This document shows, one piece after another, positions 306 through 64,000 of a DNA stretch of 64,000 bases. A program made the translations under genes and the position numbers. This DNA is from Candidatus Parcubacteria bacterium (lineage in GTDB: Bacteria > Patescibacteriota > Minisyncoccia > Phycocordibacterales > Phycocordibacteraceae). The notes beneath the pieces are model-generated. The model was not told where the DNA came from. It worked only from the letters and a program-made list of their open reading frames with translations, and did no database searches. The first letter of the stretch is position 1. Every line of letters begins with the position of its first letter. The stretch spans positions 4,613-68,612 of the forward strand of contig JAXDML010000002.1 in NCBI GenBank assembly GCA_034666125.1, given 5' to 3'.

Positions 306-647
306 CTACAGATCCTTCCCGTGGTAGAGCTCCGGGGAAAGGGAAGAGGCGTCAACGCCGTCGAGGCAGCGAACGTTCACCATGACTTTCGGGAACGTAA
401 CTCCTTCGGCATACGGCTGCACGCCGCAGACGCGGCAGAAAAGATGCCGGATGGCCTTCTTGTTGAAGAAATATTCCATGAGCATATCTTCGCTCGTATG
501 GAGCGTGAACTTGTCCTTGTCGACCGCCGAAAGGATGAATCCTTTCTTGCTGCAGTGGGAGCAGTCGCATTCGATGACCTTGTCGAGATCGACTTCGGCC
601 TCGAACCTGACCGCGCCGCAGTGGCACCCGCCTTCGTATGTCTTCAT
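306..647 (-). CDS. GFA-family (CENP-V / glutathione-dependent formaldehyde-activating-like) zinc-binding protein
   Basis: 113 aa with the Cys motifs CHCGAV...CDCSHC...CRVCG typical of the GFA fold. Confidence 0.7.
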   Translation of the reverse strand: MKTYEGGCHCGAVRFEAEVDLDKVIECDCSHCSKKGFILSAVDKDKFTLHTSEDMLMEYFFNKKAIRHLFCRVCGVQPYAEGVTFPKVMVNVRCLDGVDASSLSPELYHGKDL

Positions 648-3478: not shown

Positions 3479-4213
3479 ATGGAACGCGATTGGAAGGAAT
3501 TACTCGACAGCAGGCTGGACACCTTCTGGGGGTATGGGAATCTGGACGGGAAGCACTGGTTCGTGGGGATGGAGGAAGGCCACGATCTGGATATGGAAAG
3601 CCTGAAAGGCAGACTGAAGGATACACAGGGGAAAAGCATCGTGGACATCGTGGAAGGGAACCCGTCCTTCGTCAAGAAGCTCAGGTGGTTCGTACCGCCC
3701 GCCCCACCGATCCAGAGGACGTATAAGGGGTACATAGCGATACAACTCTTCCTGGAACTCGGGAGAATGCCGACTACGATAGAAATACGCGAATATCAGC
3801 TCACCAGGCTCGGCCGCACGTACGTAGATGGCTTGCCGAACGATCATGCCATCTTGGAACTCATGCCCCTGCCCGCTCCTTCCCTTGCGGAAAGGCATTG
3901 GCCCTATGGGAATCTCGGTATAGCCGGTCTCGAGAACCGGAAAAAGTATCTGGCGACATACAAGCCGGTCCAATGCGAAAAGCTCAAGGCCATGATCGAG
4001 GACTATAAGCCGGCACTGGTGGTCTTCTATTCCCTGACCTATCTCGGGGACTGGCAGCGCATCGTTCCTGGAAAGTTAGAAGAGGTCGCCGATCGCCAAT
4101 TCGTATATGAAGATGCGGGTACGATATATTGCGTACTGCCGCATCCGGTTTCCCGAAATATACGGAACGCCGACTGGGAGACTTGGGGAAAGGAACTGCT
4201 CCGGAGGCTCTAA
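3479..4213 (+). CDS. Hypothetical protein (244 aa)
   Basis: Start reassigned to the ATG at 3479 (MERDWKELL...). The upstream part of ORF 3062-4213 lies antisense to uppP and is rejected. No recognisable domain; GC is moderately lower than neighbours. Confidence 0.4.
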   Translation: MERDWKELLDSRLDTFWGYGNLDGKHWFVGMEEGHDLDMESLKGRLKDTQGKSIVDIVEGNPSFVKKLRWFVPPAPPIQRTYKGYIAIQLFLELGRMPTTIEIREYQLTRLGRTYVDGLPNDHAILELMPLPAPSLAERHWPYGNLGIAGLENRKKYLATYKPVQCEKLKAMIEDYKPALVVFYSLTYLGDWQRIVPGKLEEVADRQFVYEDAGTIYCVLPHPVSRNIRNADWETWGKELLRRL

Positions 4214-7196: not shown

Positions 7197-7874
7197 TTAA
7201 TACGCTGCAAGGTCGAGCTTGTACCCGCGCCCGGGCACGGTATGTATGAGGTTCTTATTCCCGGGCAGGTTCAGCTTCTTACGGAGCCCGCGGATATGCG
7301 ACTCGATGGTATTCGAGAACGGGTCGCTCACCATATCCCAGACGTGTTCCATGATCATGCCGCGTGAGAGCACGGTTCCCTGGTGGCGCATCAGGTACGC
7401 AAGGAGCATGAATTCCTTTCGGGTGAGGTATACGCCGCGTTCGCCCCGCTTCACGTTCTGCTGCTTCACGTCGACCGTGAGATCGTCGACGGTCATGATG
7501 TCCCCGACGAGGTTCGACGGCCGCCGCAGGAGCGCCCGCACGCGGGCCATGAGCTCGTCGAACGAGTACGGCTTTATGAGATAGTCGTCGGCGCCGGCGT
7601 TCAGGAGCTGCACCTTCTGCCAGCTATCGTTCAGGACGGAAAGCATGAGGATGGGAACGGTGCGCCCGGTACGGCGTATCTCCGTGCAGACCGTGGTGCC
7701 GGCCTTCTCGGGGAGCATATTGTCGAGTATGACGATGTCGTAGTCGTTCGTGCGCGCCATGTACGAGCCCTCGGTCCCGTCGGCGGCCGTATCGACCGCA
7801 AAGCACTGAGTGCGCAGGTTATCGGCCAGCATCTCCCGCAGCGCATCCTCGTCCTCCACTACCAGTGCTCTCAT
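7197..7874 (-). CDS. OmpR/PhoB-family response regulator (receiver plus winged-helix), no adjacent kinase
   Basis: N-terminal receiver (MRALVVEDEDALREML..) and C-terminal trans_reg_C-like wHTH (LTRKEFMLLAYLMRHQGTVLSRGMIMEHVWD). No histidine kinase within several kb on either side. Confidence 0.85.
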   Translation of the reverse strand: MRALVVEDEDALREMLADNLRTQCFAVDTAADGTEGSYMARTNDYDIVILDNMLPEKAGTTVCTEIRRTGRTVPILMLSVLNDSWQKVQLLNAGADDYLIKPYSFDELMARVRALLRRPSNLVGDIMTVDDLTVDVKQQNVKRGERGVYLTRKEFMLLAYLMRHQGTVLSRGMIMEHVWDMVSDPFSNTIESHIRGLRKKLNLPGNKNLIHTVPGRGYKLDLAAY

Positions 7875-8119
7875 ATATTCGTTTCGGTTAAACCTGTATT
7901 ACCTCATTCTAAAGAGGAGACAGAGCCAGTCGTCGTTCACCTGAACCGAATCGGGGATAAATATCGTCTCGCCAAGAACTCTCGTGAAAACAACACGTAT
8001 TTGCTAACCCAAACCTTAAGAAAAGCTGCAGAAGAATATCAAGAATAAAAAGAAAAGACCGCGGCGCCGACGGAGAAGGCGCGTTGGTCTTCTCACGGTC
8101 GGGCCGCGGTCGTAATTGG

Positions 8120-8404
8120 TCAGCCGGCCGCTTGGCGCGCCGGGGTCCGGTCGGTTTCGTAGAGCACGATCCCGAGCATCGAGCCGACGATCATGCTGAG
8201 GCCTCCGACGACCTCCAGCATCAAGCCGAGACTCTCGAGGCTATCGATGCCGAGCACGCGCCCGACCCCGAACATCGCGAGGCCGATCAGCATGATGCAG
8301 GAACTGCAGATCGCCGCCAGCGCTTCGCTGGGGGAGAACCCGTACGCTATCAAGATCTTCCGCATCTTCTCCTCCTCAATCGCGGTGTGAGATATTGATA
8401 ACAT
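8120..8404 (-). CDS. Small two-TM membrane protein, divergent from lexA
   Basis: 94 aa (alternative start at 8365, MRKIL...). Two hydrophobic helices. Shares its upstream region with lexA. Confidence 0.45.
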   Translation of the reverse strand: MLSISHTAIEEEKMRKILIAYGFSPSEALAAICSSCIMLIGLAMFGVGRVLGIDSLESLGLMLEVVGGLSMIVGSMLGIVLYETDRTPARQAAG

Positions 8405-8446
8405 ACATAGCAGGTTTTGTCAAAGAACGTATCCTACAGCATGTAT

Positions 8447-8460
8447 TATTGGCTATCGAA
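8447..8460. promoter_or_regulatory. Cheo-box-like LexA operator (CGAACAGTTGTTCG)
   Basis: Perfect palindrome matching the Gram-positive-type SOS box CGAAC-N4-GTTCG. It lies in the divergent intergenic region just upstream of the reassigned lexA start. Confidence 0.55.
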
Positions 8461-8478
8461 CAGTTGTTCGAGTATGCT

Positions 8479-9051
8479 ATGGGTATGCAGGACGGACACG
8501 CGGAGAAGGTGCGGAAGTTCTATCGGCGGCACAAGCGGATGCCTTCGATCACCGAGCTCATGGGCATATTCAAGCTCGCCTCACGGAGCTCGGCGTTCTA
8601 TGTGGCGAACAAGCTCGTGGAAGCGGGCGTGCTCGAGAAGGACCGGACGGGAAAGCTCGTGCCGGGAAGCGCTTTCCATGCGGTGCCGGTCGTGGGTCAT
8701 GTCCGCGCGGGCTTCGCCGCGCCCGCAGAGGAGGAGCTCGCGGACACCATCAGCATCGGGGAGTATCTGCTGCGGCGCCCCGAGGCGAGTTACCTCCTTA
8801 CGGTCGAAGGGGACTCCATGCAGGACGCGGGCATTCATCACAAGGACATGGTGGTATTCGAGCGGACGCAGGAGTATAAGGTCGGAGACATCGTGGTCGC
8901 GCTCACCCAGGACGGCTACACGCTCAAGTATCTGCGCAAGAAACAGGGGACGTATTATCTCGAAGCGGCGAACGAGGACTTCCCGGATATCCATCCGCAG
9001 GAAGGAGAGATCGTCGGCGTCGTGACCGCCACGTTCAGGAAGTATGGATAG
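8479..9051 (+). CDS. lexA: LexA repressor (S24 peptidase)
   Basis: N-terminal wHTH plus C-terminal S24 domain with VEGDSM (Ser nucleophile) and a downstream Lys. Start placed at the ATG at 8479 so the operator is not inside the CDS. Confidence 0.85.
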   Translation: MGMQDGHAEKVRKFYRRHKRMPSITELMGIFKLASRSSAFYVANKLVEAGVLEKDRTGKLVPGSAFHAVPVVGHVRAGFAAPAEEELADTISIGEYLLRRPEASYLLTVEGDSMQDAGIHHKDMVVFERTQEYKVGDIVVALTQDGYTLKYLRKKQGTYYLEAANEDFPDIHPQEGEIVGVVTATFRKYG

Positions 9052-10342
9052 GAATTATACGGAGCAGTATCCACGAGCGATCCTACACATGGATGGGGAC
9101 TCGTTCTTCGCCTCCGTCGAGCAGGCGCTCGACTGGAGGTTACGCGGGAAACCGGTGGTAACAGGCGGGGAGCGCGGCGCGGCGACGGCCATGTCGTACG
9201 AAGCCAAGAAGATGGGCGTGCGGCGCAGCATGACCATGCGGGAGATTAAGAGGGTCTGTCCGGAGGCGATCGTCGTGCCGTCGAACTACACCGCGTACTC
9301 CATATACGCGCACCGCATGTACAAGATCGTGCGGTCCTTCACCCCGGAAGTGGAGGAGTACAGCATCGATGAATGCTTCGCGGATATCACGGGGCTCACC
9401 GAACGCTACGGCAAAACATACGAAGAGATCGGACAGATGATTAAGGCGCAGCTCGAACAGGACCTCGGCATCACCTTCGGTGTGGGGCTGGCGCCGAACA
9501 AGACCCTCGCGAAGGTGGCATCCTCGAAGAACAAGCCCGCAGGCTTCACGCCGCTACCGAGGGAAGCAATTCCGGAATTTCTCAAGGACCTGCCGATGGG
9601 GGCGATATGGGGCGTCGGTTTCTCGACCTCGATGCAGCTCGAACGCATGGGCGTGCGGACCGCGCTCGACTTCGCGACGAAGGACCGCGCGTGGCTCAAG
9701 GAGAAGAAGGTGAGCCTCCCTTACCAGAAGATATGGGCGGAACTGAACGGGGGATTCGCGCGTCGGCTCGGCGAGGACGGCGACGAGCGCATCGGCAGCA
9801 TCATCAAGTCGCATACCTTCAGGCCGACGCGCGACCGCGACTACATACTCTCGCAGCTATCCTCGAATCTCGAGGCCGCGTGCGCCAAGGCGCGACGCCA
9901 CAACGTGAAAGCGCGCTTCTGCCGCTTCTATCTCAAGACCCAGGATTTCACGTACGCGGGACTGACCCTCGATCTCACCGTGCCGCTCACGGATCCGCGC
10001 GAGTTCTTACGGGCCATAGAAGCGCGCTTTGATGATATCCACGACCCGGGCGAGACCTACCGCGCCACCGGCATCGGTCTCTATGCCCTTACGCGCGATG
10101 ACTCGGTCACTCCCGACATCTTCGGGGAAAGCGTCCGCGTCGAACAGGAAGCGCCGCTTATCGATGCCATCGACCACCTGAACCACAAGTACGGCCGACA
10201 CACCGTCTTCCTGGGCGAGAGCTTCGGCGCGGTCACGGACGGGGAAGCGTCGCGCAGGGAACGCGAGGAGCGCCGGTTCGCGCTCCCCATACACCAGCGC
10301 AAGAAGACGATTTCTATTCCGCATTTAGGCGTGGTGCGTTGA
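9044..10342 (+). CDS. dinB: DNA polymerase IV (Y-family, DinB)
   Basis: N-terminal ILHMDGDSFFASVEQ catalytic motif of Y-family polymerases. Overlaps the lexA stop by 8 nt, so lexA-dinB form an operon. Confidence 0.85.
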   Translation: MDRNYTEQYPRAILHMDGDSFFASVEQALDWRLRGKPVVTGGERGAATAMSYEAKKMGVRRSMTMREIKRVCPEAIVVPSNYTAYSIYAHRMYKIVRSFTPEVEEYSIDECFADITGLTERYGKTYEEIGQMIKAQLEQDLGITFGVGLAPNKTLAKVASSKNKPAGFTPLPREAIPEFLKDLPMGAIWGVGFSTSMQLERMGVRTALDFATKDRAWLKEKKVSLPYQKIWAELNGGFARRLGEDGDERIGSIIKSHTFRPTRDRDYILSQLSSNLEAACAKARRHNVKARFCRFYLKTQDFTYAGLTLDLTVPLTDPREFLRAIEARFDDIHDPGETYRATGIGLYALTRDDSVTPDIFGESVRVEQEAPLIDAIDHLNHKYGRHTVFLGESFGAVTDGEASRREREERRFALPIHQRKKTISIPHLGVVR

Positions 10343-10560
10343 AAGCTCAAAACTTAGCTGGCTAATAGACGCGAAGCATGATGATTCTATTTGACTATAA
10401 CTATATAGTGTACTACTATATTGCTGGTCTGTTTGTACCTTGGCAGATCGGGAGAATGAAGAAACGTCTAGGCGGACTGGAATCCGCCTGTGCGTGAGGC
10501 CCGGAAAACCTCCATATCTCAAGGCCACGGACGGCCAATCCACAAGGTAGGAGACGGTTC

Positions 10561-11217
10561 ATGTCCAAGATCGAAAACCTTGACCAATTTCTTGGCCTCG
10601 TCGAAGCAAAAGCAATTCCCGGACACCTGTGCGAAGCCTGGGGCGGCAAAGACCCGCGTCAGATCGCACTCAAAGCGAAGTCTGCGGGCTGGTTTCGTCG
10701 ACACCCAGTATTGATGGGTACGCTGGTCTTCGCATTTCTGATGGTCATCAGCTTCATGCCCTTTGTCATTGGGAGATCCGCTACCTCCATCCTCATAAAT
10801 TATTTTGGATGGTGGCTTGCCATGAGTGCCGTCCTCATCAGCATCGCCATGGCGCTGTGGCATACGAGTTCCGCAAAGGAAAACGCCTGGCTGAAGGTCG
10901 GACCCTTTGCCGAAACCTATGACCAGATGCTGGAAACCCTCGGCCTCACGGCCGCGGAATGTGCCGTCATGGAGGAGGAAGCCCTGCGTCTCCTCGCAGA
11001 GCGCGAAATGGTCGACGCATGCAAGGATGTCCTCGAATATCAGCGCAGGACGCATAAGCTTCCGCCGACCGATAAGAAGCTCGATCGTGAGAAAGAACTT
11101 CGTAAAAAGGTCGCGCAGACCTACGACGCTCTCATTCCGTTCGAGCTCGTCTCGGCCGACGGCTTCGGGCCTTATTACGAGATGGCGGCTAACGAGCTCT
11201 ACGGCGAAGCCGCCTGA
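10561..11217 (+). CDS. Hypothetical membrane protein (2-3 TM, C-terminal charged helical region)
   Basis: 218 aa with AGGAGA RBS. Preceded by a 220-bp low-GC leader carrying TTGACT-17-TACTAT promoter-like hexamers (about 10392-10420). Confidence 0.45.
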   Translation: MSKIENLDQFLGLVEAKAIPGHLCEAWGGKDPRQIALKAKSAGWFRRHPVLMGTLVFAFLMVISFMPFVIGRSATSILINYFGWWLAMSAVLISIAMALWHTSSAKENAWLKVGPFAETYDQMLETLGLTAAECAVMEEEALRLLAEREMVDACKDVLEYQRRTHKLPPTDKKLDREKELRKKVAQTYDALIPFELVSADGFGPYYEMAANELYGEAA

Positions 11218-12561: not shown

Positions 12562-13104
12562 ATGACGGAAAACAATGTCATCTTTGATTTTGATTTGACG
12601 ATCGGACGCCTGGTAACAGACTGGGCTGAATGGCGAAAGGCAGTCTGGGAACTAGTAAAAACATTTGATTCCTCTTCTACCTACGGGCTAGAGCAAATCA
12701 CCCACGCTTCTCAGAATGACTTAATATTAAAATACGGCCCGGTCTTCAAAAAAGATCTCGACGAGGTAAATGAGAAGCTCGAGTCGAGCTCTATCGATAG
12801 TTTCGTGCCTAACGACAAGGTGGTCGCTTTTATACAAAGCACAGACAAGAATCTATATCTTTGGCCCTCTAATTCACATCCAACTGTATCAAAATATCTG
12901 AAGCCTCTCGGCATAGAAAAGAAGTTCCAAGCGATAGTCACGCGCGAACAGGTATCTCTACTTAAGCCTGACCCGGAAGGATTTTCTTTGATCCATAACT
13001 CCATCAATGCTCTTCATGACTACGTCCTTGTTGGAGATAGTCAATCTGACGCAACTGCTGCTTTAAATGCTGGAATGCGTTTCGTTCACGTAGACTCCTT
13101 CTAA
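12562..13104 (+). CDS. HAD-superfamily hydrolase
   Basis: HAD motif I FDFDLT and motif IV VGDSQSD. GC is markedly lower (roughly 40%) than flanking genes. Confidence 0.7.
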   Translation: MTENNVIFDFDLTIGRLVTDWAEWRKAVWELVKTFDSSSTYGLEQITHASQNDLILKYGPVFKKDLDEVNEKLESSSIDSFVPNDKVVAFIQSTDKNLYLWPSNSHPTVSKYLKPLGIEKKFQAIVTREQVSLLKPDPEGFSLIHNSINALHDYVLVGDSQSDATAALNAGMRFVHVDSF

Positions 13105-36840: not shown

Positions 36841-38568
36841 CTACTTAACTAAGAAGGGCCAGATGAATTCGGTACGCCGGTACCAGTACCGCGCGCCCTG
36901 GAAACGGTCCGACGGCTCGATGATGTGCGCGAGCGCGACGCCCCTCAGGTCCTCGGGTATCGAATACAGGAAATCAGGCGTATGAGTGAAGACAGCCGGG
37001 AAGTCGCTGGCGATACGCTCGTTCGCGCGCGCGAGATCGGCAAGCGCCGCGTCACGATCGGTCTCCGTCCGCGCCCGTTCGAGAAGCTCGTCCACCTCGT
37101 CATTCGCGTATCCGGCGACGTTAAGACCCGGATCCTCGCGCTCGTCCGAATGCCAGAAGGCGTACAGGTCGGGATAGCTGCCGACGACCTCGCCGAAGAG
37201 GAGCGCGCCGTAGTCGCGGGGACGGATGACCGATTGGGTCAGTTCGCCCGGCGGATACAGCTCCACCGTTACCGGCACGCCGATGGCGTTCCAGTCGCTC
37301 TCGATCTTCGAAGCAAGGCCCTTCAGCTCCGGAACGTTCGAGGTCTTGAGCGTCACGGCGAGCGCCACGCCGTCCCTGCTCCACGACTGCAACTCGCCGT
37401 TCCACTCCCAGCCGTCCTCCTCGAGCATCGCGCGTGCAGTCTCGACGCGCATCGAAGGGTCAGGAAGAAGAAGGTCCGGGACGCCGGTCCCGGCAGGCAC
37501 CGGCCCGATGCTCGGCGTGGCGTACCCGCCGAGCACGTCCCGCACCAGGGCGGGCCGGTCGATGGCCGTCGAGAGCGCGTGGCGCACGGCCTCGTCCGCG
37601 AACAGCGGTTCGGCCGCCGGGTTGAAGAACACGCCGAAGATGCGGGAATAGGGAGCGCGAAGCGCGCCTTCTCGCGCTACGCCGTACGCGCTCTCGACCT
37701 GGCCGCCGCGCAGTCCCGAAAGGAGCGAGGCGTTATCCTCGAAGACGACGAAGCGGATGCGGTCGAGGTACGGGCGCCCGAGCACGTAGCCGGGGTTCGC
37801 CACGAGATCGTACTGCGTGATGCGCCCGTCGCCGTCCCGCGTTACGCCCGCCATCTTGAAGGGTCCCGCGCCGACGGGCTCGCTTGCGTACGGCGAGAAC
37901 GCAAACTCCTCGCTCGATACGCCTTGCCATACGCTTGAGGGCAGGATGCCGAGCGTCGCGTCCTCGAGGAACGGCGCATACGGCTCCGGCAGCGTGAAGC
38001 GTACCGTTCGGGCGTCGGTCGCTTCCACCTCGATATTCGCCCAGTTCGAGAGCACGGGGCTCTTAAGCGCCGGGTCCTTCGCTTTTTCCACGGTGAACAC
38101 GACGTCATCGGCGGTCACGGGACTGCCGTCCGAGAACTTCGCGTCCGCGCGGAGCGTGAACGTATACGTGCGCTCGTCTTCCGAACGCGCGAAACTCTCG
38201 GCCAATACCGGAACGGGATTGCCGTTGGCGTCATATCCCATGAGTCCCGCATACGCCAGGGCGGTCAGGTCGCGATCAGTGTCGGACAAGGCAAGCAGCG
38301 GATTCACGAAACGCGGGGCGCCTATGACCCCCTCCGTAAGAGTGCCGCCATATACCGGTACTTCCACCTGATACGCGCGCTCAAGCGCGACGATGCCCGC
38401 GAGGCTCGTGATCACGACGGCGAGTCCGAGCACGCGCGCGATGAGGCGGTCGCCGGGCGGGAGGCTCCGCAGATACGCGTTCAGCCGCGCGACGGGGCCG
38501 TGCCCGTATCCGGTCAGACTTTTTATGCTCCGGAACGTCCGTCCCGGTATTTCGGTAAAGGGAGCCAT
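36841..38568 (-). CDS. ABC-transporter solute-binding protein, family 5 (peptide/nickel type), TM-anchored, solitary
   Basis: 575 aa with an N-terminal TM helix. SBP_bac_5-like architecture; no permease or ATPase genes adjacent. Confidence 0.7.
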   Translation of the reverse strand: MAPFTEIPGRTFRSIKSLTGYGHGPVARLNAYLRSLPPGDRLIARVLGLAVVITSLAGIVALERAYQVEVPVYGGTLTEGVIGAPRFVNPLLALSDTDRDLTALAYAGLMGYDANGNPVPVLAESFARSEDERTYTFTLRADAKFSDGSPVTADDVVFTVEKAKDPALKSPVLSNWANIEVEATDARTVRFTLPEPYAPFLEDATLGILPSSVWQGVSSEEFAFSPYASEPVGAGPFKMAGVTRDGDGRITQYDLVANPGYVLGRPYLDRIRFVVFEDNASLLSGLRGGQVESAYGVAREGALRAPYSRIFGVFFNPAAEPLFADEAVRHALSTAIDRPALVRDVLGGYATPSIGPVPAGTGVPDLLLPDPSMRVETARAMLEEDGWEWNGELQSWSRDGVALAVTLKTSNVPELKGLASKIESDWNAIGVPVTVELYPPGELTQSVIRPRDYGALLFGEVVGSYPDLYAFWHSDEREDPGLNVAGYANDEVDELLERARTETDRDAALADLARANERIASDFPAVFTHTPDFLYSIPEDLRGVALAHIIEPSDRFQGARYWYRRTEFIWPFLVK

Positions 38569-47037: not shown

Positions 47038-47127
47038 GGAGACGTCGCATAGTGGTCTAGTGCACCGCCTTGGAAAGGCGGCAGGCTCGAAAGGGTCTCG
47101 AGAGTTCGAATCTCTCCGTCTCCGCCA
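47038..47127 (+). tRNA. tRNA-Ser (anticodon GGA), long variable arm, CCA encoded
   Basis: Cloverleaf read by hand: acceptor GGAGACG/CGTCTCC; anticodon stem CCGCC/GGCGG with loop TTGGAAA; long extra arm; T-arm GAGAG-TTCGAAT-CTCTC; 3' GCCA. Confidence 0.85.
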
Positions 47128-47402
47128 ACCAACCCAGGCCCTATCCACAGGTTATACAGGCTTATACACACCCCATGCTCGTCAGGAGCTGTACTTACGT
47201 TAAGAGCCGACGGCCTTACCGAAAGGCTTTATAAAAATTTCATTGACGCTTCATATCCAGAGTGCTCTACTCAGCAATAGTACGGTTCCGGGCAGGAACG
47301 ATATAGAACCCTTACCTCCTCAAAGACATGATTTTGAGGCGTTCTGTGCGTTTATTTGAAACTCATCGCGCGCTCTTCGCGTACATAAAACTATATAGAC
47401 CT

Positions 47403-50400
47403 ATGCAAAAGTCATGGACCGGGCACGTACTTCGCGCCCTACAGGCAAGCCTTTTGGGGCTCAGCCTCGTGGCGATGAACCTCGCGCCAATTACTAGCGC
47501 GCTCGCTCAAACAACCGACTCGCCCCAGCCAATTGGTCCCGAGATTAGCGACACCTCTTCTCTTACCGTAGAGGACGAAACGGAAGATGCAGAAGATGTG
47601 ATCGAGATAACGGACCCCGTCGTAGACGAGGAGACCGATACCGACGTAGGCCCTGACATCGGTGACGAGTTGGGCGACAGCGATGAATTCGGTAGTGAGT
47701 TCAAAGCGCTCTTTGCGCCCCTTGTTTCGGGCCTTACAGTGGCGGCCCAGGACGTGACGGTCCACATCTATAAGTACGTCGCGAGCCCTTCGGGAGAGGC
47801 CCTCGCTACGGGAGGAGATTCCTTCCCGATGCAGTCGAGCTGGGATGCTGAGAGCCTGGGTGGTCCAGGCGCAGGAACCTACTCGCTTTCATCCCCGACC
47901 TACAACGCCGACACCGCCCCCATGACCTCGGGAGCCGACTACGCCACCAATGAGGTTACCGGAGGCGATATCCTGCCCATAGGCGCTACGTGCGAGGCTA
48001 ATAAGTATCGCCTTGTCGGCTATCGCGACGGAACGAGCCTCTCGGCAGCCCAGAGCGATTCCATCTCCACAGCGTCCCCGAATTACAGCGACCTGACGGA
48101 AGACATGTACGTCATCGTCGTGAACGAGGACTGCGATAACCTGCCCCCTCCGCCCCCTCCTGAAATTCCTGCGTGTAACCTCGGTGACGATACGACCTTC
48201 GATACGTTCACCCTTGGTAGCGTGCATGGCCAGCATGGCTGGAGCTCTACAGGCCCCTACGACCAGGAAGTCGTTGATAACACCTACGGGTACAGCACCT
48301 TCGGGTGTAAGTCATTGCGCCTTTCGAACGCCGTCACGAGCGATTCGTTCGGAGACCAGACGTTCTCGTATTCGATCGCGAACGAAGCCGGTGAAACTGA
48401 CGCTCTGAACGATGGGATGTCTGGAGGTACGCGCCAGAATCACTTCGATGCGCAGTTTGATCTCGGTACGGCCATGGCTACCGTACAGCCAGAAATGGCG
48501 CTCTCCGTCTCTCCGGACCGTGGTGACGGCGCCCGCATGAGCTACCTCCGCTTCGAAGACCAAGCCGACGGTATCCACGTGTTCTTCTATGACGTGCAGG
48601 GCACTGACGCATCGGCTAACTTTGTCGAAACAGAGCTTCCGGGGAGCCTCAGCCGTACTGACGCGCACACCATCAAGTTCTCGATCGATTTCGTCGATGG
48701 TCCTTCAAACGACGTTGTCGAGATCTATATCGATGGTACGCCCGTTCACACGGGTACTACCTGGGAGAATTATTACCGTTTCGATCCGGAGTCGCAGGGA
48801 ACCCCTCACGACCCAGCCCTTGAGAACAAGAGCCGGACCGTCGATTCGCTTCTCTTCCGCGCAGGCGGAGGGCCTGTTCCCGCTAATGACGAGAACGGAT
48901 TCCTGTTCGACAACGTCTCGATCACCTCAGACACCGAGGCACCACAGATGTGTTCGCTCGTAAGCGATGACGTGCACACCTTCATTGGCACCATCCCGGC
49001 AACGGCTACCTTCGAGCACAATGCCTGGAGCGATGAGCTTGATGGCGACGGAGCGCTATGGATCTGGAACGCACCGCTCGTAACCGATCCAACCCAGCCC
49101 GAGACGGTTACCTTCACCCGCACCTTTGACGTTACGGGTACGCCGGGAGCAGCGACGCTTGAAATCGCGTCCGATAATATCCACACGGTCAACGTGAACG
49201 GCACAGAAATCGCTTGTGGTGGAGCTACGCAGCCTAACTACGCCTCGGTAGGCGGAGACAATACCTGCTCGATCCCCGTGGTAAGCGGTGAGAATACGAT
49301 CACCTTCACGGTGACGAACGAGGCGACACCGACCGATTCCAATCCTCAAAACAATCCAGCTGGTCTCTACTACAAGATCACTGTGCCGCAGGCATCCTGC
49401 GCCGACGTGCCTCCGGTACCGACATCTGACGTCCTGCTCTGTAAGGTAAGCGATGACGGAGTACCGCTCGCAAATTGGCAGCTCTACCTCATCAAGAACT
49501 TCGACACCGAAGGCTTCGAGGTGCCTACGAACGATCCGTCTGGAGTCAATTCGGATACGCTTACGGATGGCGTGTCGTACCTCCTCAGCGGTATCGGTAG
49601 CTGGACCAACCAGAACGGCGCGAATCCGGCCGATGCTGAGTACTCGACCACTAACGATTGGGATACGCATATGGACGGCTACGACGGCTATGGCACCGGC
49701 ATCCTCGAACTCGAAGTAGATGAAACGGATAGGAGTTGGGGTCCTTACAACGATTCCCATTCCTACAGCCAGCTCTTCGAGGGAACCGGCAGTCCCGTCA
49801 ACTTCCGCATATTCGACGGCGATACCGGCTCGCACGAGCAGAACCTCGACTGGTTCGGCGACAACGAGGGCTTCCTTCAGGTCTACGTCGACGAAGAGGT
49901 CTATGGCGGAACGACCGGAAACGACGGATGCATCACAGTTACCGACGTACCGTTCGGCGATTACACCCTCTACGAGGTGCCGCAGAGCGGCTGGTATCCG
50001 AGTGACTTCAAGGACGGCGAAGAATCCGTCGGACAGGAAGTTACCGTAGACGAAGAGCAAGAGACGTTCACGTTCGTCAATACGCCCGTCGGTAGCCTCA
50101 CCATCGTGAAGCACACGACCGGCGGCGACGGCACCTTCACCTTCGGCGTCTCCGAAGTCGATGACTACGACGACGAAGAGGAACCGGTACTTGATGCCCT
50201 CACGACCTATTCCCTGAGAGGTGTAGCGGCCCTCGCAGATGCAGAGGAAGATGAAGACGACTACGGCCCGCTCTCATTCGATATCACTACTGAAGGCGGT
50301 ACCGGATCGACGGGTTCCATTCCGCTTGATGGAGGAACGTACGACGTGACGGAAGTTGTTCCTAATAACTGGGACCTTACGGACTCGTACTGCGAGTACG

Positions 50401-52943
50401 ACGGCGGTGGGGCCGGCATCAGTATCGACCAGGGCGAACAGATCTACCTTGGCGCAGGAGACGAAGTAACCTGTCACTTCTTCGACAACAAGACCGCGGA
50501 AATAGACCAGGTAAAGGTACACATCTTCAAATATCTCTGGGAAGAGAATGAAGAGACCGAGGAGGAAGGCGACGGCGAAGCCATACCGGTCGCTGACGGC
50601 TCTGGACTCCCGCAGTTCCCGATGACCTCGACCTGGCAGGCAGCGAATCTTAACAACGGCGACTCCACGAGTGGCAGCTACGTTCTTGGCAATAACCATG
50701 GCGGAAGCAGCAGCCAATACGGCGCGGATACGAGTCCTATGGACGCTCCTGCCGACTACACGACGACCGAAACCACCGATGGCAGCGTAGTCGTGGCAAG
50801 CAAGGACCAGTGCTCGCCTGGGAAGTACGTACTTCTCGGGTACAAGTCCGGCAATACGCTCGCACAGGCTGAGGATGCTTGGATCGAAGAAACTGCACCC
50901 GTATACGAGGATCTTACGAGCGACCGCTATATCATCGTCGTGAACGAACCATGCGACGGCGAACCGGAGGAACCGGGGTCCTGCGTCATTGAAAGCGATG
51001 CGACGACGCTTGAGAGCGACGAGCCTTCCTTCATCGCGCAGTTCATCCACAGCTCGTGGACGGCGATCATCGAAGGCGCTGAATGGATCTGGGGAGATGA
51101 GGCCATAGTTGACCCTGTGGGTACCGAGACCCAGGTCTTCACCAAAACCTTCTGGATCGACAGCCTTCCGGCAACGGATGGGGAACTCCAGATCGCTGCT
51201 GATAACACGTATTCAGTCACGCTCAACGGATCACCGATCGGTGCAAGCTCAGACGAGGACAACTACACCTCAGCAAGCCAGGACACGCTCAATGTCCCGA
51301 CAAGCGCGCTCCAGCTCGGACAGAACACCCTTGAGATCACCGTGACGAACCTGCCTATGGAAGGCGGCACTGAAGAAACGAATCCCGCAGGGCTCAAGTA
51401 CAAGCTCACGCTTGACGGAGCCGACTGCTCGAACCTTCTCAAGGTGCACATCCTCAAGTACCTCGACCTCGGAGAAACGGAGGTGCAGGTCGCTGACGGC
51501 TCAGGCGCGCCAGCCTTCCCGATGCGCTCGAATTGGGATGCTGAAAACATAGGGGCAGGCTCGGGCAGCTACGTTCTTGGTGACAACCATGGCGGTTCAC
51601 CCAGCACGTACGGCGCAGATACCTCAGCGATGAGCGCTCCTGCCGACTACACGACCTATGAGGTTACGACCGGAGACGCCGACGAAGCAACGGTTAACGA
51701 CGAGAATAGCCCGGTACTCTCGGTAGGGGCTGTGTGCGTTGCTGACAAATACCGCCTCGTCGGATATCGCAGCGGCACCACGCAAAGCGGGGCTGAAACC
51801 GCGCCCCTCTCAACGACCGCGCCCGTGTTCACTGACATCACGAACGATCGCTATGTGCTTGTGATCAACGAGGATTGTGACGATGTGCTTGACGAAGGGG
51901 GAGGTAACGGCGATGAGAGCGCTACGCTCACCATCGTGAAGGAGACGCAGGGCGGTGACGGCACCTTCACCTTCGACGTTGCCGAAACAAGCATCGAGAC
52001 CGTCCTCATTGCTGACGATAGCCCGGAGGCGACGATAGCCACTTCCGAAGGGGCGGGTACAAGTGCCCCCATTACGCTCGACCCAGGTACGTATGACGTT
52101 ACCGAGAACATTCCTGAGGGATGGGACCTCGTGAATGTTTCCTGCGTGTATGACAACCAGGCGACCGGCGATGTCATCGAGGATCCGCTCGTTGGCGAGA
52201 CCATAACCGTCGACGACGGCGACGAGGTAACCTGCACCTTCACGAACGCGGTGAGCGATGGAGGGGGAGAGAATCCCGGAACGCTCCATGTGGTGAAAGT
52301 GATAGAAGGCGGTAACGGGATACCGACCGACTTCAGCTTCCAAGTCAATGGAGGTGCGCCAATCCAGATTGAAGGAGACAGCCAGAATGACCTCTCTATT
52401 GCGGCCGGTGCCTATTCGGTTATCGAAGTGGAGTCGAGCGTATATGACGCCACGTATTCCGAAGGCTGTTCGGGAACGATGCCGGCAGATGGCGACATAA
52501 CCTGCACCATTACCAACACCGCAACCGCGAATGGTGGAGGCGGCGGAGGTGGCGGAGGTGGAGGCGGTAACTCAAACAACAATAACGGACAGGTCCTCGG
52601 CGCATCGACCGAAGGACAGGTCCTCGGCAGCGAGTGCACGCTCCTCACGGCATTCATGCGCGAGGGTATGGCGAACGATTCGGCACAAGTCACAATGCTC
52701 CAGGCCTTCCTGAACGGAGAAATGGGCTCCGGCCTTCCGACCAGCGGATTCTTCGGCCCGCTCACGACCCAGGCGGTCAACAGCTTCCAGCTCAAATACT
52801 GGGAGGAGGTGCTGAAGCCATGGGCCGACATCGGTCTCGGAGAAGACCACAAGCCGACCGGCTACGTCTTCAAGACCACGCTCTGGAAGATCAACGACAT
52901 CCAGTGTCCTGACTTGGATGCACCGTTCCCGACCCTTCCGTAA
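47403..52943 (+). CDS. Giant secreted modular surface protein (1,846 aa) with C-terminal peptidoglycan-binding domain
   Basis: Start placed at MQKSWTGHVLRALQASLLGLSLVAMNLAPITSALAQ (signal peptide), inside ORF 47328-52943. Contents: acidic N-terminal region; three diverged ~130-aa repeats (VHIYKYV/VHIFKYL/VHILKYL ... VIVVNEDCD/IIVVNEPCD/VLVINEDCD); two 'WIW' beta-sandwich-like modules; three 'TIVK..GGDGTFTF'-type (DUF11 / prealbumin-like) modules; a poly-Gly/Asn linker; a C-terminal PG_binding_1-like segment (TMLQAFLNGEMGSGLPTSGFFGPLTTQAVNSFQ). Confidence 0.7.
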   Translation: MQKSWTGHVLRALQASLLGLSLVAMNLAPITSALAQTTDSPQPIGPEISDTSSLTVEDETEDAEDVIEITDPVVDEETDTDVGPDIGDELGDSDEFGSEFKALFAPLVSGLTVAAQDVTVHIYKYVASPSGEALATGGDSFPMQSSWDAESLGGPGAGTYSLSSPTYNADTAPMTSGADYATNEVTGGDILPIGATCEANKYRLVGYRDGTSLSAAQSDSISTASPNYSDLTEDMYVIVVNEDCDNLPPPPPPEIPACNLGDDTTFDTFTLGSVHGQHGWSSTGPYDQEVVDNTYGYSTFGCKSLRLSNAVTSDSFGDQTFSYSIANEAGETDALNDGMSGGTRQNHFDAQFDLGTAMATVQPEMALSVSPDRGDGARMSYLRFEDQADGIHVFFYDVQGTDASANFVETELPGSLSRTDAHTIKFSIDFVDGPSNDVVEIYIDGTPVHTGTTWENYYRFDPESQGTPHDPALENKSRTVDSLLFRAGGGPVPANDENGFLFDNVSITSDTEAPQMCSLVSDDVHTFIGTIPATATFEHNAWSDELDGDGALWIWNAPLVTDPTQPETVTFTRTFDVTGTPGAATLEIASDNIHTVNVNGTEIACGGATQPNYASVGGDNTCSIPVVSGENTITFTVTNEATPTDSNPQNNPAGLYYKITVPQASCADVPPVPTSDVLLCKVSDDGVPLANWQLYLIKNFDTEGFEVPTNDPSGVNSDTLTDGVSYLLSGIGSWTNQNGANPADAEYSTTNDWDTHMDGYDGYGTGILELEVDETDRSWGPYNDSHSYSQLFEGTGSPVNFRIFDGDTGSHEQNLDWFGDNEGFLQVYVDEEVYGGTTGNDGCITVTDVPFGDYTLYEVPQSGWYPSDFKDGEESVGQEVTVDEEQETFTFVNTPVGSLTIVKHTTGGDGTFTFGVSEVDDYDDEEEPVLDALTTYSLRGVAALADAEEDEDDYGPLSFDITTEGGTGSTGSIPLDGGTYDVTEVVPNNWDLTDSYCEYDGGGAGISIDQGEQIYLGAGDEVTCHFFDNKTAEIDQVKVHIFKYLWEENEETEEEGDGEAIPVADGSGLPQFPMTSTWQAANLNNGDSTSGSYVLGNNHGGSSSQYGADTSPMDAPADYTTTETTDGSVVVASKDQCSPGKYVLLGYKSGNTLAQAEDAWIEETAPVYEDLTSDRYIIVVNEPCDGEPEEPGSCVIESDATTLESDEPSFIAQFIHSSWTAIIEGAEWIWGDEAIVDPVGTETQVFTKTFWIDSLPATDGELQIAADNTYSVTLNGSPIGASSDEDNYTSASQDTLNVPTSALQLGQNTLEITVTNLPMEGGTEETNPAGLKYKLTLDGADCSNLLKVHILKYLDLGETEVQVADGSGAPAFPMRSNWDAENIGAGSGSYVLGDNHGGSPSTYGADTSAMSAPADYTTYEVTTGDADEATVNDENSPVLSVGAVCVADKYRLVGYRSGTTQSGAETAPLSTTAPVFTDITNDRYVLVINEDCDDVLDEGGGNGDESATLTIVKETQGGDGTFTFDVAETSIETVLIADDSPEATIATSEGAGTSAPITLDPGTYDVTENIPEGWDLVNVSCVYDNQATGDVIEDPLVGETITVDDGDEVTCTFTNAVSDGGGENPGTLHVVKVIEGGNGIPTDFSFQVNGGAPIQIEGDSQNDLSIAAGAYSVIEVESSVYDATYSEGCSGTMPADGDITCTITNTATANGGGGGGGGGGGGNSNNNNGQVLGASTEGQVLGSECTLLTAFMREGMANDSAQVTMLQAFLNGEMGSGLPTSGFFGPLTTQAVNSFQLKYWEEVLKPWADIGLGEDHKPTGYVFKTTLWKINDIQCPDLDAPFPTLP

Positions 52944-56524: not shown

Positions 56525-56529
56525 ATCTC

Positions 56530-56858
56530 GTGAGACCGGTCCGATAAGCCGAATTCTGTCCCACCGAAGTGAGGACGGTCATCTATCTGGGGTACCTGTT
56601 ACCAGGCACCTCGAGCGGCGCTCCCTATCGCTAGGGCACGGCCTTGCTCCGGGGTAAGGATTTAGCCGTTTCAGCCTGAAATCGCTCTCAGGACGCTCTG
56701 CGGGAGAGCCCCTAGCCTTTCGGCATCGGGCGTTTCTGTTCGCACCTCGCGGATCGCTCCGGACGGGCGTTACCCGCTACCTTGCTGCCTCGTAAAGAGG
56801 CCGGAGTTCGGACTTTCCTCTGGCTTGTGCCAGCGACCGTCTGGGCCGGTCTGGGAGG
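56530..56858 (-). ncRNA. rnpB: RNase P RNA (type A), rnpB
   Basis: Minus-strand transcript contains GAGGAAAGUCCGAACUCC (P4 5' strand), GGUAACGCC, CCCGGAGCAAGGCC and 3' ACAGAAUUCGGCUUAUCGGACCGGUCUC. These align collinearly with E. coli M1 RNA (GAGGAAAGUCCGGGCUCC ... CAGGUAACGCC ... CCCGGAGCAAGGCC ... ACAGAACCCGGCUUAUCGG). P1 pairing is AGACCGG/CCGGUCU. The region is about 330 nt and free of ORFs. Confidence 0.8.
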
Positions 56859-63288: not shown

Positions 63289-63359
63289 GCGGGATTCGTT
63301 CAGTGGCAGGACGCGACCTTCCCAAGGTTGAGACACGGGTTCGATTCCCGTATCCCGCA
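63289..63359 (+). tRNA. tRNA-Gly (anticodon CCC)
   Basis: Acceptor GCGGGAT/ATCCCGC; D-arm GTTCAGTGGCAGGAC-like; anticodon stem CGACC/GGTTG with loop TTCCCAA; T-arm GGGTTCGATTCCC. Starts 1 nt after the ftsB-like stop; no encoded CCA. Confidence 0.8.
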
Positions 63360-63949: not shown

Positions 63950-64000
63950 GCCCTCGTAGTTCAATGGATAGAACATCTCACTCCTAACGAGATAATGTAG
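63950..64000 (+). tRNA. tRNA-Arg (anticodon CCU), 5' part; continues beyond the window end
   Basis: GCCCTCG-TA-GTTC-AATGGATA-GAAC-A-TCTCA-CTCCTAA-CGAGA-TAATG... Close to E. coli tRNA-Arg(CCU) (GUCCUCUUAGUUAAAUGGAUAUAACGAGCCCCUCCUAAGGGCUAAUUG...). Confidence 0.6.

Follow-up and report, generated by a model that had tools for sequence, protein, structure and literature searches.

A putative LexA operator in the promoter of a Parcubacteria lexA-dinB operon, and an orphan divergent gene most likely outside its control

A perfect palindrome, CGAACAGTTGTTCG, at 8457-8470 is read here as the autoregulatory LexA operator of a Parcubacteria lexA-dinB operon, and the small gene that diverges from lexA as a real orphan which most likely lies outside the SOS regulon and is not a division inhibitor. 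The probability of this reading as a whole was put at about 0.72. All coordinates refer to the window, ie the complete 64-kb stretch of DNA that was analysed. What is proposed for the operator and for lexA-dinB is well supported but ordinary, the operator being of the type known from B. subtilis.

Conservation of the operator

The palindrome was present and perfect, as had been claimed from a first inspection of the sequence, but its position is ten bases off the interval given for it at that time (8447-8460). Its 16-bp extended form is TCGAACAGTTGTTCGA, at 8456-8471, and neither form is assigned to a strand. Firstly, the frequency of such sites in the window was determined. Two exact matches to CGAAC-N4-GTTCG were found against 0.27 expected, and two or more were obtained in 5 of 100 shuffled sequences. 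Matches with one mismatch were uninformative (5 against 4.9 expected). The second exact match, at 37599-37612, was rejected as a chance occurrence; it lies inside a 575-aa open reading frame, in a GC-rich coding region, and scores less than 12 bits with the clade matrix described below.

Relatives were collected by a scan of one genome per species, which gave 38 loci with a LexA 63-84% identical to that of the window. All 38 come from metagenome-assembled genomes of Parcubacteria, Paceibacterota or other Patescibacteria. Of these, 37 carry GAAC-N4-GTTC at the corresponding position ahead of their lexA, and the remaining locus is truncated at its 5' end. Because the motif is kept at an orthologous position, the site at 8457-8470 is not a product of chance. 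The aligned sites gave the clade consensus TCGAACAATTGTTCGA, in which the GAAC and GTTC halves are invariant. The operator of the window scores 27.9 bits with the corresponding matrix and is the sole site of 12 bits or more within the 64 kb. The matrix from the 38 genomes can be used for SOS-regulon scans of complete genomes of uncultivated relatives.

The original prediction of a Cheo-box-type LexA operator for lexA-dinB agrees with the exact match and with its retention in the orthologous promoters. The operator type was also said to be informative about the organism, and it suits a window from the Parcubacteria (Patescibacteria), in that the motif is the one given for the SOS boxes of B. 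subtilis and S. aureus in Table 1 of PMC9578287. The core motif is identical to the Cheo box of those two species, where the palindrome likewise lies inside the repressor's own promoter; the clade consensus is longer than their box. A comparative study of the SOS network in Patescibacteria, ie the same superphylum and the same regulator, has been published (Sanchez-Osuna, Barbe and Erill, Environ Microbiol 2017, 19:3465, cited in PMC8565304 and PMC7739468). Judged by its title and by these citations, a LexA-controlled network in this group is already on record.

The lexA promoter

The operator occupies the spacer of the candidate lexA promoter. The -35 hexamer, TTGGCT (8449-8454, forward strand), aligns with a conserved TTGACn found directly 5' of the box in the relatives. 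The -10 hexamer, TATGCT (8473-8478, forward strand), corresponds to a TAnnnT hexamer located 2-3 nt past the box, which reads TATACT in 21 of the 38. The spacer is 18 nt in the window and 17-18 nt in 30 of the 38 relatives, with the box filling it. Automatic calls placed the lexA start codon 6-8 nt after the -10 in 31 of 38 loci, the remainder being mostly calls of an alternative hexamer or of an upstream ATG; in the window, ATG 8485 sits 6 nt after TATGCT. Across the clade, the order is -35, box, -10, 6-8 nt and ATG, and in most loci there is no space for a ribosome-binding site. When the window was compared with its closest relatives, sequence conservation was seen to start only at the -35 of lexA.

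As a consensus match the lexA promoter of the window reaches just 8/12, and it is the comparison with relatives that backs it. A standard promoter and terminator scan of 7800-8600 listed nothing, its thresholds being such that an 8/12 promoter like that of lexA, a TATCAA -10 and a long-stem terminator are all excluded. The lexA promoter, the promoters of the small gene and the terminator were judged instead by comparison, by our own scan and by folding.

The promoter geometry of the relatives makes ATG 8485 the most likely start of lexA, rather than the alternative in-frame ATG 8479, and the gene (8485-9051, forward strand) then codes for 188 aa. An ATG 6-8 nt past the -10 implies a leaderless mRNA, so that lexA of the window is probably expressed in this way, and the conserved geometry, with the operator in the spacer, predicts leaderless expression of lexA throughout the clade. 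The placement of the operator is that expected of a repressor which blocks polymerase binding: a LexA dimer bound in the 18-nt spacer between TTGGCT and TATGCT would exclude RNA polymerase. Compared with LexA autoregulation in B. subtilis and S. aureus, the particular feature here is an operator that fills the -35/-10 spacer of an apparently leaderless lexA mRNA. To our knowledge, neither this promoter geometry nor the orphan neighbour was described in the 2017 study of the Patescibacteria.

LexA and the translesion polymerase

The lexA product was examined by domain search and by alignment. Its C-terminal S24 domain matches Pfam Peptidase_S24 (PF00717, 6.2e-26), while the N-terminal LexA winged helix, PF01726, gave no Pfam match at E <= 0.01, so that S24 alone was detected. 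The protein aligns with positions 18-201 of the 203 in the TIGR00498 (lexA) model and scores 98.7 bits, under the cut-off of 110.95, and the NCBIfam UmuD model matches the C-terminal domain with 95 bits, also under its cut-off. With phmmer, residues 10-186 align with residues 15-195 of the Thermotoga LexA 3k2z, DNA-binding domain included. Numbered from ATG 8485, Ala75-Gly76, Ser110 (in GDSM) and Lys147 (in TLKYL) are in register with the E. coli and Thermotoga LexA. From these alignments the S24 protein is read as a somewhat divergent but complete LexA. It shares the domain order, the Ala-Gly site and the Ser/Lys dyad with the LexA of B. subtilis and S. aureus; unlike that protein, it narrowly misses the NCBIfam cut-off for LexA, and its DNA-binding domain is unseen by Pfam. 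Following DNA damage, RecA would be expected to stimulate self-cleavage at Ala75-Gly76 by the Ser110/Lys147 dyad, and this would derepress both lexA and the translesion polymerase coupled to it.

That polymerase is a Y-family (DinB/Pol IV-like) enzyme of 432 aa, identified by Pfam, NCBIfam and PDB matches and encoded at 9044-10342 on the forward strand, the first 8 nt of its gene being shared with the end of lexA. The Pfam matches are to IMS and IMS_C, with IMS_HHH and DUF4113 sub-threshold, the DUF4113 match being carried by a longer C-terminus. The best matches in both NCBIfam and the PDB are to DNA polymerase IV. An orthologue lies directly 3' of lexA in each of the 36 relatives whose sequence extends far enough, which points to lexA-dinB as a fixed operon in the clade; in several relatives the two genes do not overlap and are separated by 140-190 nt. 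A translesion polymerase belongs to the core SOS set according to PMC8565304, and in B. subtilis and S. aureus it is under the same type of control; here the two genes form what appears to be one operon clade-wide. A Gram-positive-type LexA operator, together with a lexA-polymerase operon, is thereby placed in a single group, at family level, within the candidate phyla radiation.

The same arrangement could be produced by a local repressor of a translesion-polymerase cassette, comparable to HdiR-umuC or UmuDAb, in which case the protein would not be a global SOS regulator and its cleaved C-terminal domain might act as a UmuD'-like partner. This we consider rather improbable. Local regulators of mutagenic cassettes are documented, according to PMC8565304, for HdiR-umuC in streptococci and for UmuDAb in Acinetobacter. 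There, a self-cleaving S24 repressor stands beside a Y-family polymerase which it presumably controls, and the window is alike in this respect: the S24 gene and the polymerase gene are linked in 36 of 36 cases, their stop and start codons overlap in the window, and the UmuD score over the S24 domain comes near the LexA score over the whole protein, both being below cut-off. The scarcity of operators also fits a local repressor. The 64 kb hold one, and a scan with the clade matrix, run over the window plus some 300 kb of flanks from the relatives, returned the lexA sites and one weak match (in L032). However, recA, uvrA and the other uvr genes were not found within the 64-kb window, nor recA or uvrA elsewhere in the sequence examined, so the lack of further boxes is uninformative. 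An exact scan of metagenome contigs for the 16-mer gave 120 loci, mostly intragenic or foreign matches, of which 3 have a LexA of the window type downstream and 11 a Y-family polymerase; no recA was found at any of the 120. Most of the remaining loci lie inside long open frames, which is a rough guide only, as the motif itself is free of stop codons in all frames.

Against a local repressor, the alignment of the N-terminal domain is to the winged helix of LexA and not to an XRE-type helix-turn-helix, and neighbouring phyla have this operator as their canonical LexA box; in both features the window differs from HdiR and UmuDAb. The polymerase resembles Pol IV more closely than UmuC, unlike that of HdiR-umuC. 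The separation of lexA and the polymerase gene in several relatives also counts against a tightly coupled cassette, as does the publication of a comparative study (cited in PMC8565304) on an SOS network in Patescibacteria. A DNA-binding domain of the LexA type, like the canonical box, speaks for the protein being an orthologue of LexA proper.

The divergent small gene and its promoters

The small gene (8120-8365, reverse strand; public locus tag QOE22_55) codes for 81 aa, predicted from hydropathy and AlphaFold2 to form a two-helix membrane hairpin. Its most likely start is ATG 8365, as in the public annotation, which corresponds to M14 of the 94-aa reading made earlier. This start was preferred because GGAGG is found 5 nt before it, in the Shine-Dalgarno sequence GAGGAGGAG (8369-8377, reverse strand), and because ATG 8404 would lie 5' to the best promoter candidate. 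The divergent layout of lexA and the small ORF was correctly described in the original prediction, but with starts at 8485 and 8365 the region between them is 119 bp (8366-8484) and not 74 bp.

Two promoter candidates for the small gene, both on the reverse strand, were obtained with our own scan. The better one, P1 (8395-8423), consists of TTGACA (8423-8418), 17 nt, and TG-n-TATCAA (8400-8395). It has 10/12 matches and an extended -10 TG, and was missing from the standard scan because its -10 is without the conserved terminal T. The operator lies 33 bp beyond the -35 of P1 and does not overlap it. The weaker alternative, P2 (8431-8459), consists of TCGATA (8459-8454), 17 nt, and TAGGAT (8436-8431), with 8/12 matches, and its -35 runs into the edge of the operator. 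P2 would be the sole arrangement giving direct repression of the small gene by LexA; such control is not predicted by P1. A sharing of the operator between the two genes, as had been proposed, does not follow from the sequence: the site is in the spacer of the lexA promoter, at a distance from P1. On the preferred reading, the small gene would be served by its own ribosome-binding site, its own terminator and the operator-free candidate P1.

The position upstream of lexA was compared among the 38 relatives, and its occupant was found to differ from one to another and to be co-directional with lexA in about half. In the window, the gene beyond the small gene is that of an OmpR-type response regulator (7197-7874, reverse strand; Pfam Response_reg and Trans_reg_C). 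A homologue lies upstream of lexA on the opposite strand in 12 of the 38, and directly adjoins lexA in at least six (L007, L010, L011, L021, L022 and L024). By this comparison, the divergent neighbour of lexA that more members of the clade have in common is the response regulator and not the small gene. Other upstream neighbours are a GDSL lipase, GFA, VTT/DedA, HTH_3 regulators, TsaD and an M50 peptidase. Given this variability, the stretch between the response regulator and lexA, where the small gene sits, is read as a slot with changing content.

No counterpart of the small gene was found in these loci. The best match of the small protein among the six-frame ORFs of the 38 had E = 1.2, and a search free of any longest-ORF filter found a small membrane ORF divergent from lexA in 0 of 38 relatives, the few matches being antisense frames of a conserved upstream gene. 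In a word-indexed search of 5.8 billion protein clusters the small protein matched only itself. A full HMMER pass over 1.84 billion representatives gave no homologue, nor did a tblastn-confirmed scan of metagenome contigs, and no match was obtained in Pfam, NCBIfam or PADLOC. Matches to a PHROG (E = 0.084) and, in the PDB, to a MORN-repeat protein (E = 0.22) were not significant. A VTT/DedA gene fills the same slot in L008, and the possibility that the small ORF is a remnant of such a gene was rejected for want of any similarity. The small gene is a strain-specific orphan of a single genome.

Comparison with SOS division inhibitors

The small protein had been put forward as a candidate SOS-induced division inhibitor, on the grounds that the gene divergent from lexA typically has this function in SOS systems of the Gram-positive type. 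The generalisation holds for YneA (B. subtilis), SosA (S. aureus), ChiZ/Rv2719c (M. tuberculosis) and DivS (C. glutamicum), whose genes adjoin lexA and whose sequences are unrelated to each other (PMC6851548); in the Parcubacteria clade it meets a variable slot. That the gene divergent from lexA is a division inhibitor is therefore an unsafe rule outside the lineages that established it.

In the proposal as weighed here, one operator governs both divergent promoters and the small membrane protein is a recently arisen SOS-induced effector, either YneA/SosA-like or membrane-depolarising in the manner of TisB. The small gene is real, its product is small and predicted to be membrane-embedded, and, being adjacent and divergent to lexA, it has the synteny of the four inhibitor genes. 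The -35 of P2 overlaps the operator. The small protein has no sequence similarity to any of the four, which is usual between members of this class, and since SOS division inhibitors are unrelated between lineages (PMC6851548), little can be concluded from the missing homology by itself. The missing positional counterpart, even in the closest relatives, carries more weight. SosA is found at the lexA-adjacent position across staphylococci with 25-60% identity (PMC6851548), whereas the small gene has no conserved position in the 38 relatives, an outcome which the original prediction had itself named as speaking against it. The lexA-upstream neighbour is variable and often co-directional, the operator has its position set by the lexA promoter whatever lies upstream, and the stronger promoter candidate, P1, stands clear of it by 33 bp. 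The topology differs as well. The class has one transmembrane segment and an extracellular C-terminal part, with LysM in some members (PMC6851548), whereas the small protein is predicted to have two transmembrane helices joined by a loop of about 10 residues on the far side, with neither an extracellular C-terminal domain nor LysM; both of its charged termini would, as a consequence of the hairpin, be on the same side of the membrane. An SOS-induced effector under a shared operator was judged unlikely on this evidence.

The small protein should not be filed in the YneA/SosA/ChiZ/DivS class, since it has just the position of its gene in common with these proteins and fails on topology and on conservation, and a functional analogy to these inhibitors has a low probability. 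More speculative, and in our estimate very doubtful, is an orphan, codon-adapted 81-aa protein recruited beside lexA in a Parcubacteria bacterium of reduced genome and induced through P2 as a newborn effector that halts division or depolarises the membrane. If true, a two-transmembrane hairpin without an external domain would be an architecture unlike that of any characterised inhibitor, and the small protein, if under SOS control, would be one of the few cases in which a very young gene has joined a stress regulon.

Evidence for a real gene

The small ORF looks like a real gene. Its codon log-odds of 0.584 bits/codon match the mean of the confident genes (0.588), and no wrong-frame chunk exceeded 0.398. 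Its GC3 is 0.85, like that of the neighbouring genes, and its flanks are AT-rich. An intrinsic terminator (8043-8111, reverse strand) starts 9 nt past the stop codon and is made up of a GC-rich hairpin, 8111-8057, followed by the U-run in UCUUUUCUUUUUAUU. On folding, the hairpin gave -37.7 kcal/mol (z = -5.2), and none of 200 shuffled sequences was equally stable. The two hydrophobic segments noticed in the product at the outset were confirmed by hydropathy at residues of about 15-34 and 45-67, and the AlphaFold2 model is a helical hairpin of residues 12-37 and 43-80 with a pLDDT of 75. The gene was annotated by independent gene callers. Over 10.7 kb, another assembly (Logan SRR24887408) has the same sequence and so contributes no independent variation.

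That the small ORF is instead a chance open frame in an intergenic spacer, as its orphan status in every database searched and the many spurious ORFs of similar length in this GC-rich window might suggest, is highly improbable in view of codon usage equal to that of confident genes and above every wrong-frame chunk, a GC3 that follows the neighbours despite AT-rich flanks, the GGAGG at a proper distance from ATG 8365, the strong terminator directly past the stop codon, the coherent two-helix hairpin predicted for the product and the agreement of independent gene callers.

A second orphan membrane-protein gene, of 218 aa, lies at 10561-11217, just downstream of dinB; on the very doubtful reading of a newborn SOS effector, it might be part of the same strain-specific addition as the small gene. 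It is also carried by a JGI contig of 1.6 kb, which ends short of the small gene. The flanks of the lexA-dinB operon gather strain-specific orphan membrane-protein genes, at 8120-8365 on one side and 10561-11217 on the other.

Results and discussion

The lexA mRNA appears to be leaderless throughout the clade, judging from the promoter and start regions of the window (8449-8485) and of the 38 related Parcubacteria/Patescibacteria loci (L001-L038, around position 4001). The lexA start codon lies only 6-8 nt past the -10 hexamer in most of the related loci, the hexamer being TATACT in 21 of the 38, and no Shine-Dalgarno sequence was seen before lexA either in the window or in L001-L038. The small gene divergent from lexA in the window, in contrast to its neighbour, has a strong GGAGG.

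Genome bin RYN_396 (JAQBRJ01) contains two separate lexA-polymerase loci, L004 and L009, whose LexA proteins are 74% and 71% identical, respectively, to that of the window. Either the locus has been duplicated or the bin combines two strains. At about 4500-5700 in L037, the polymerase downstream of lexA is matched by two overlapping open frames, suggesting that the gene carries a frameshift or is a pseudogene, or that the assembly is in error here.

A second orphan is found between dinB and yceG, on the plus strand at 10561-11217 (public tag QOE22_58). It encodes a 218-aa protein with a hydrophobic stretch in its centre, and the sole match to this protein was itself; the gene was not found in any of the 38 related loci searched. 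The gene also has a promoter-like site of its own (TTGACT-17-TACTAT, 10391-10419). The distance between dinB and yceG is shorter in L001 and L003, at approximately 140-210 nt.

On the other side of lexA, an OmpR-type response regulator is encoded on the minus strand at 7197-7874, convergent with a P-type ATPase gene, and there is no histidine kinase beside it in the window. Directly after the response regulator gene, L022 and L024 encode a multi-TM protein of 665-693 aa. Close to the window start is a GFA-family (glutathione-dependent formaldehyde-activating-like) gene (306-647, minus strand), whereas in L005 and L015 a homologue of it is the gene next to lexA, in divergent orientation; this illustrates the shuffled synteny around the lexA operon.

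The HAD-family hydrolase gene at 12562-13104 (plus strand) has an atypically low GC3 of 0.46, compared to about 0.8 in its neighbours. Its codon score is -0.08, and it may be a recent acquisition. Elsewhere in the window, one open frame (47328-52943, plus strand) is very long, at 1871 aa, and has a moderate GC3 of 0.68. The RNA genes are those for an RNase P RNA of bacterial class A (56529-56852, minus strand) and for three tRNAs, at 47038-47124, 63289-63359 and 63950-64000; the third tRNA gene is truncated where the window ends.
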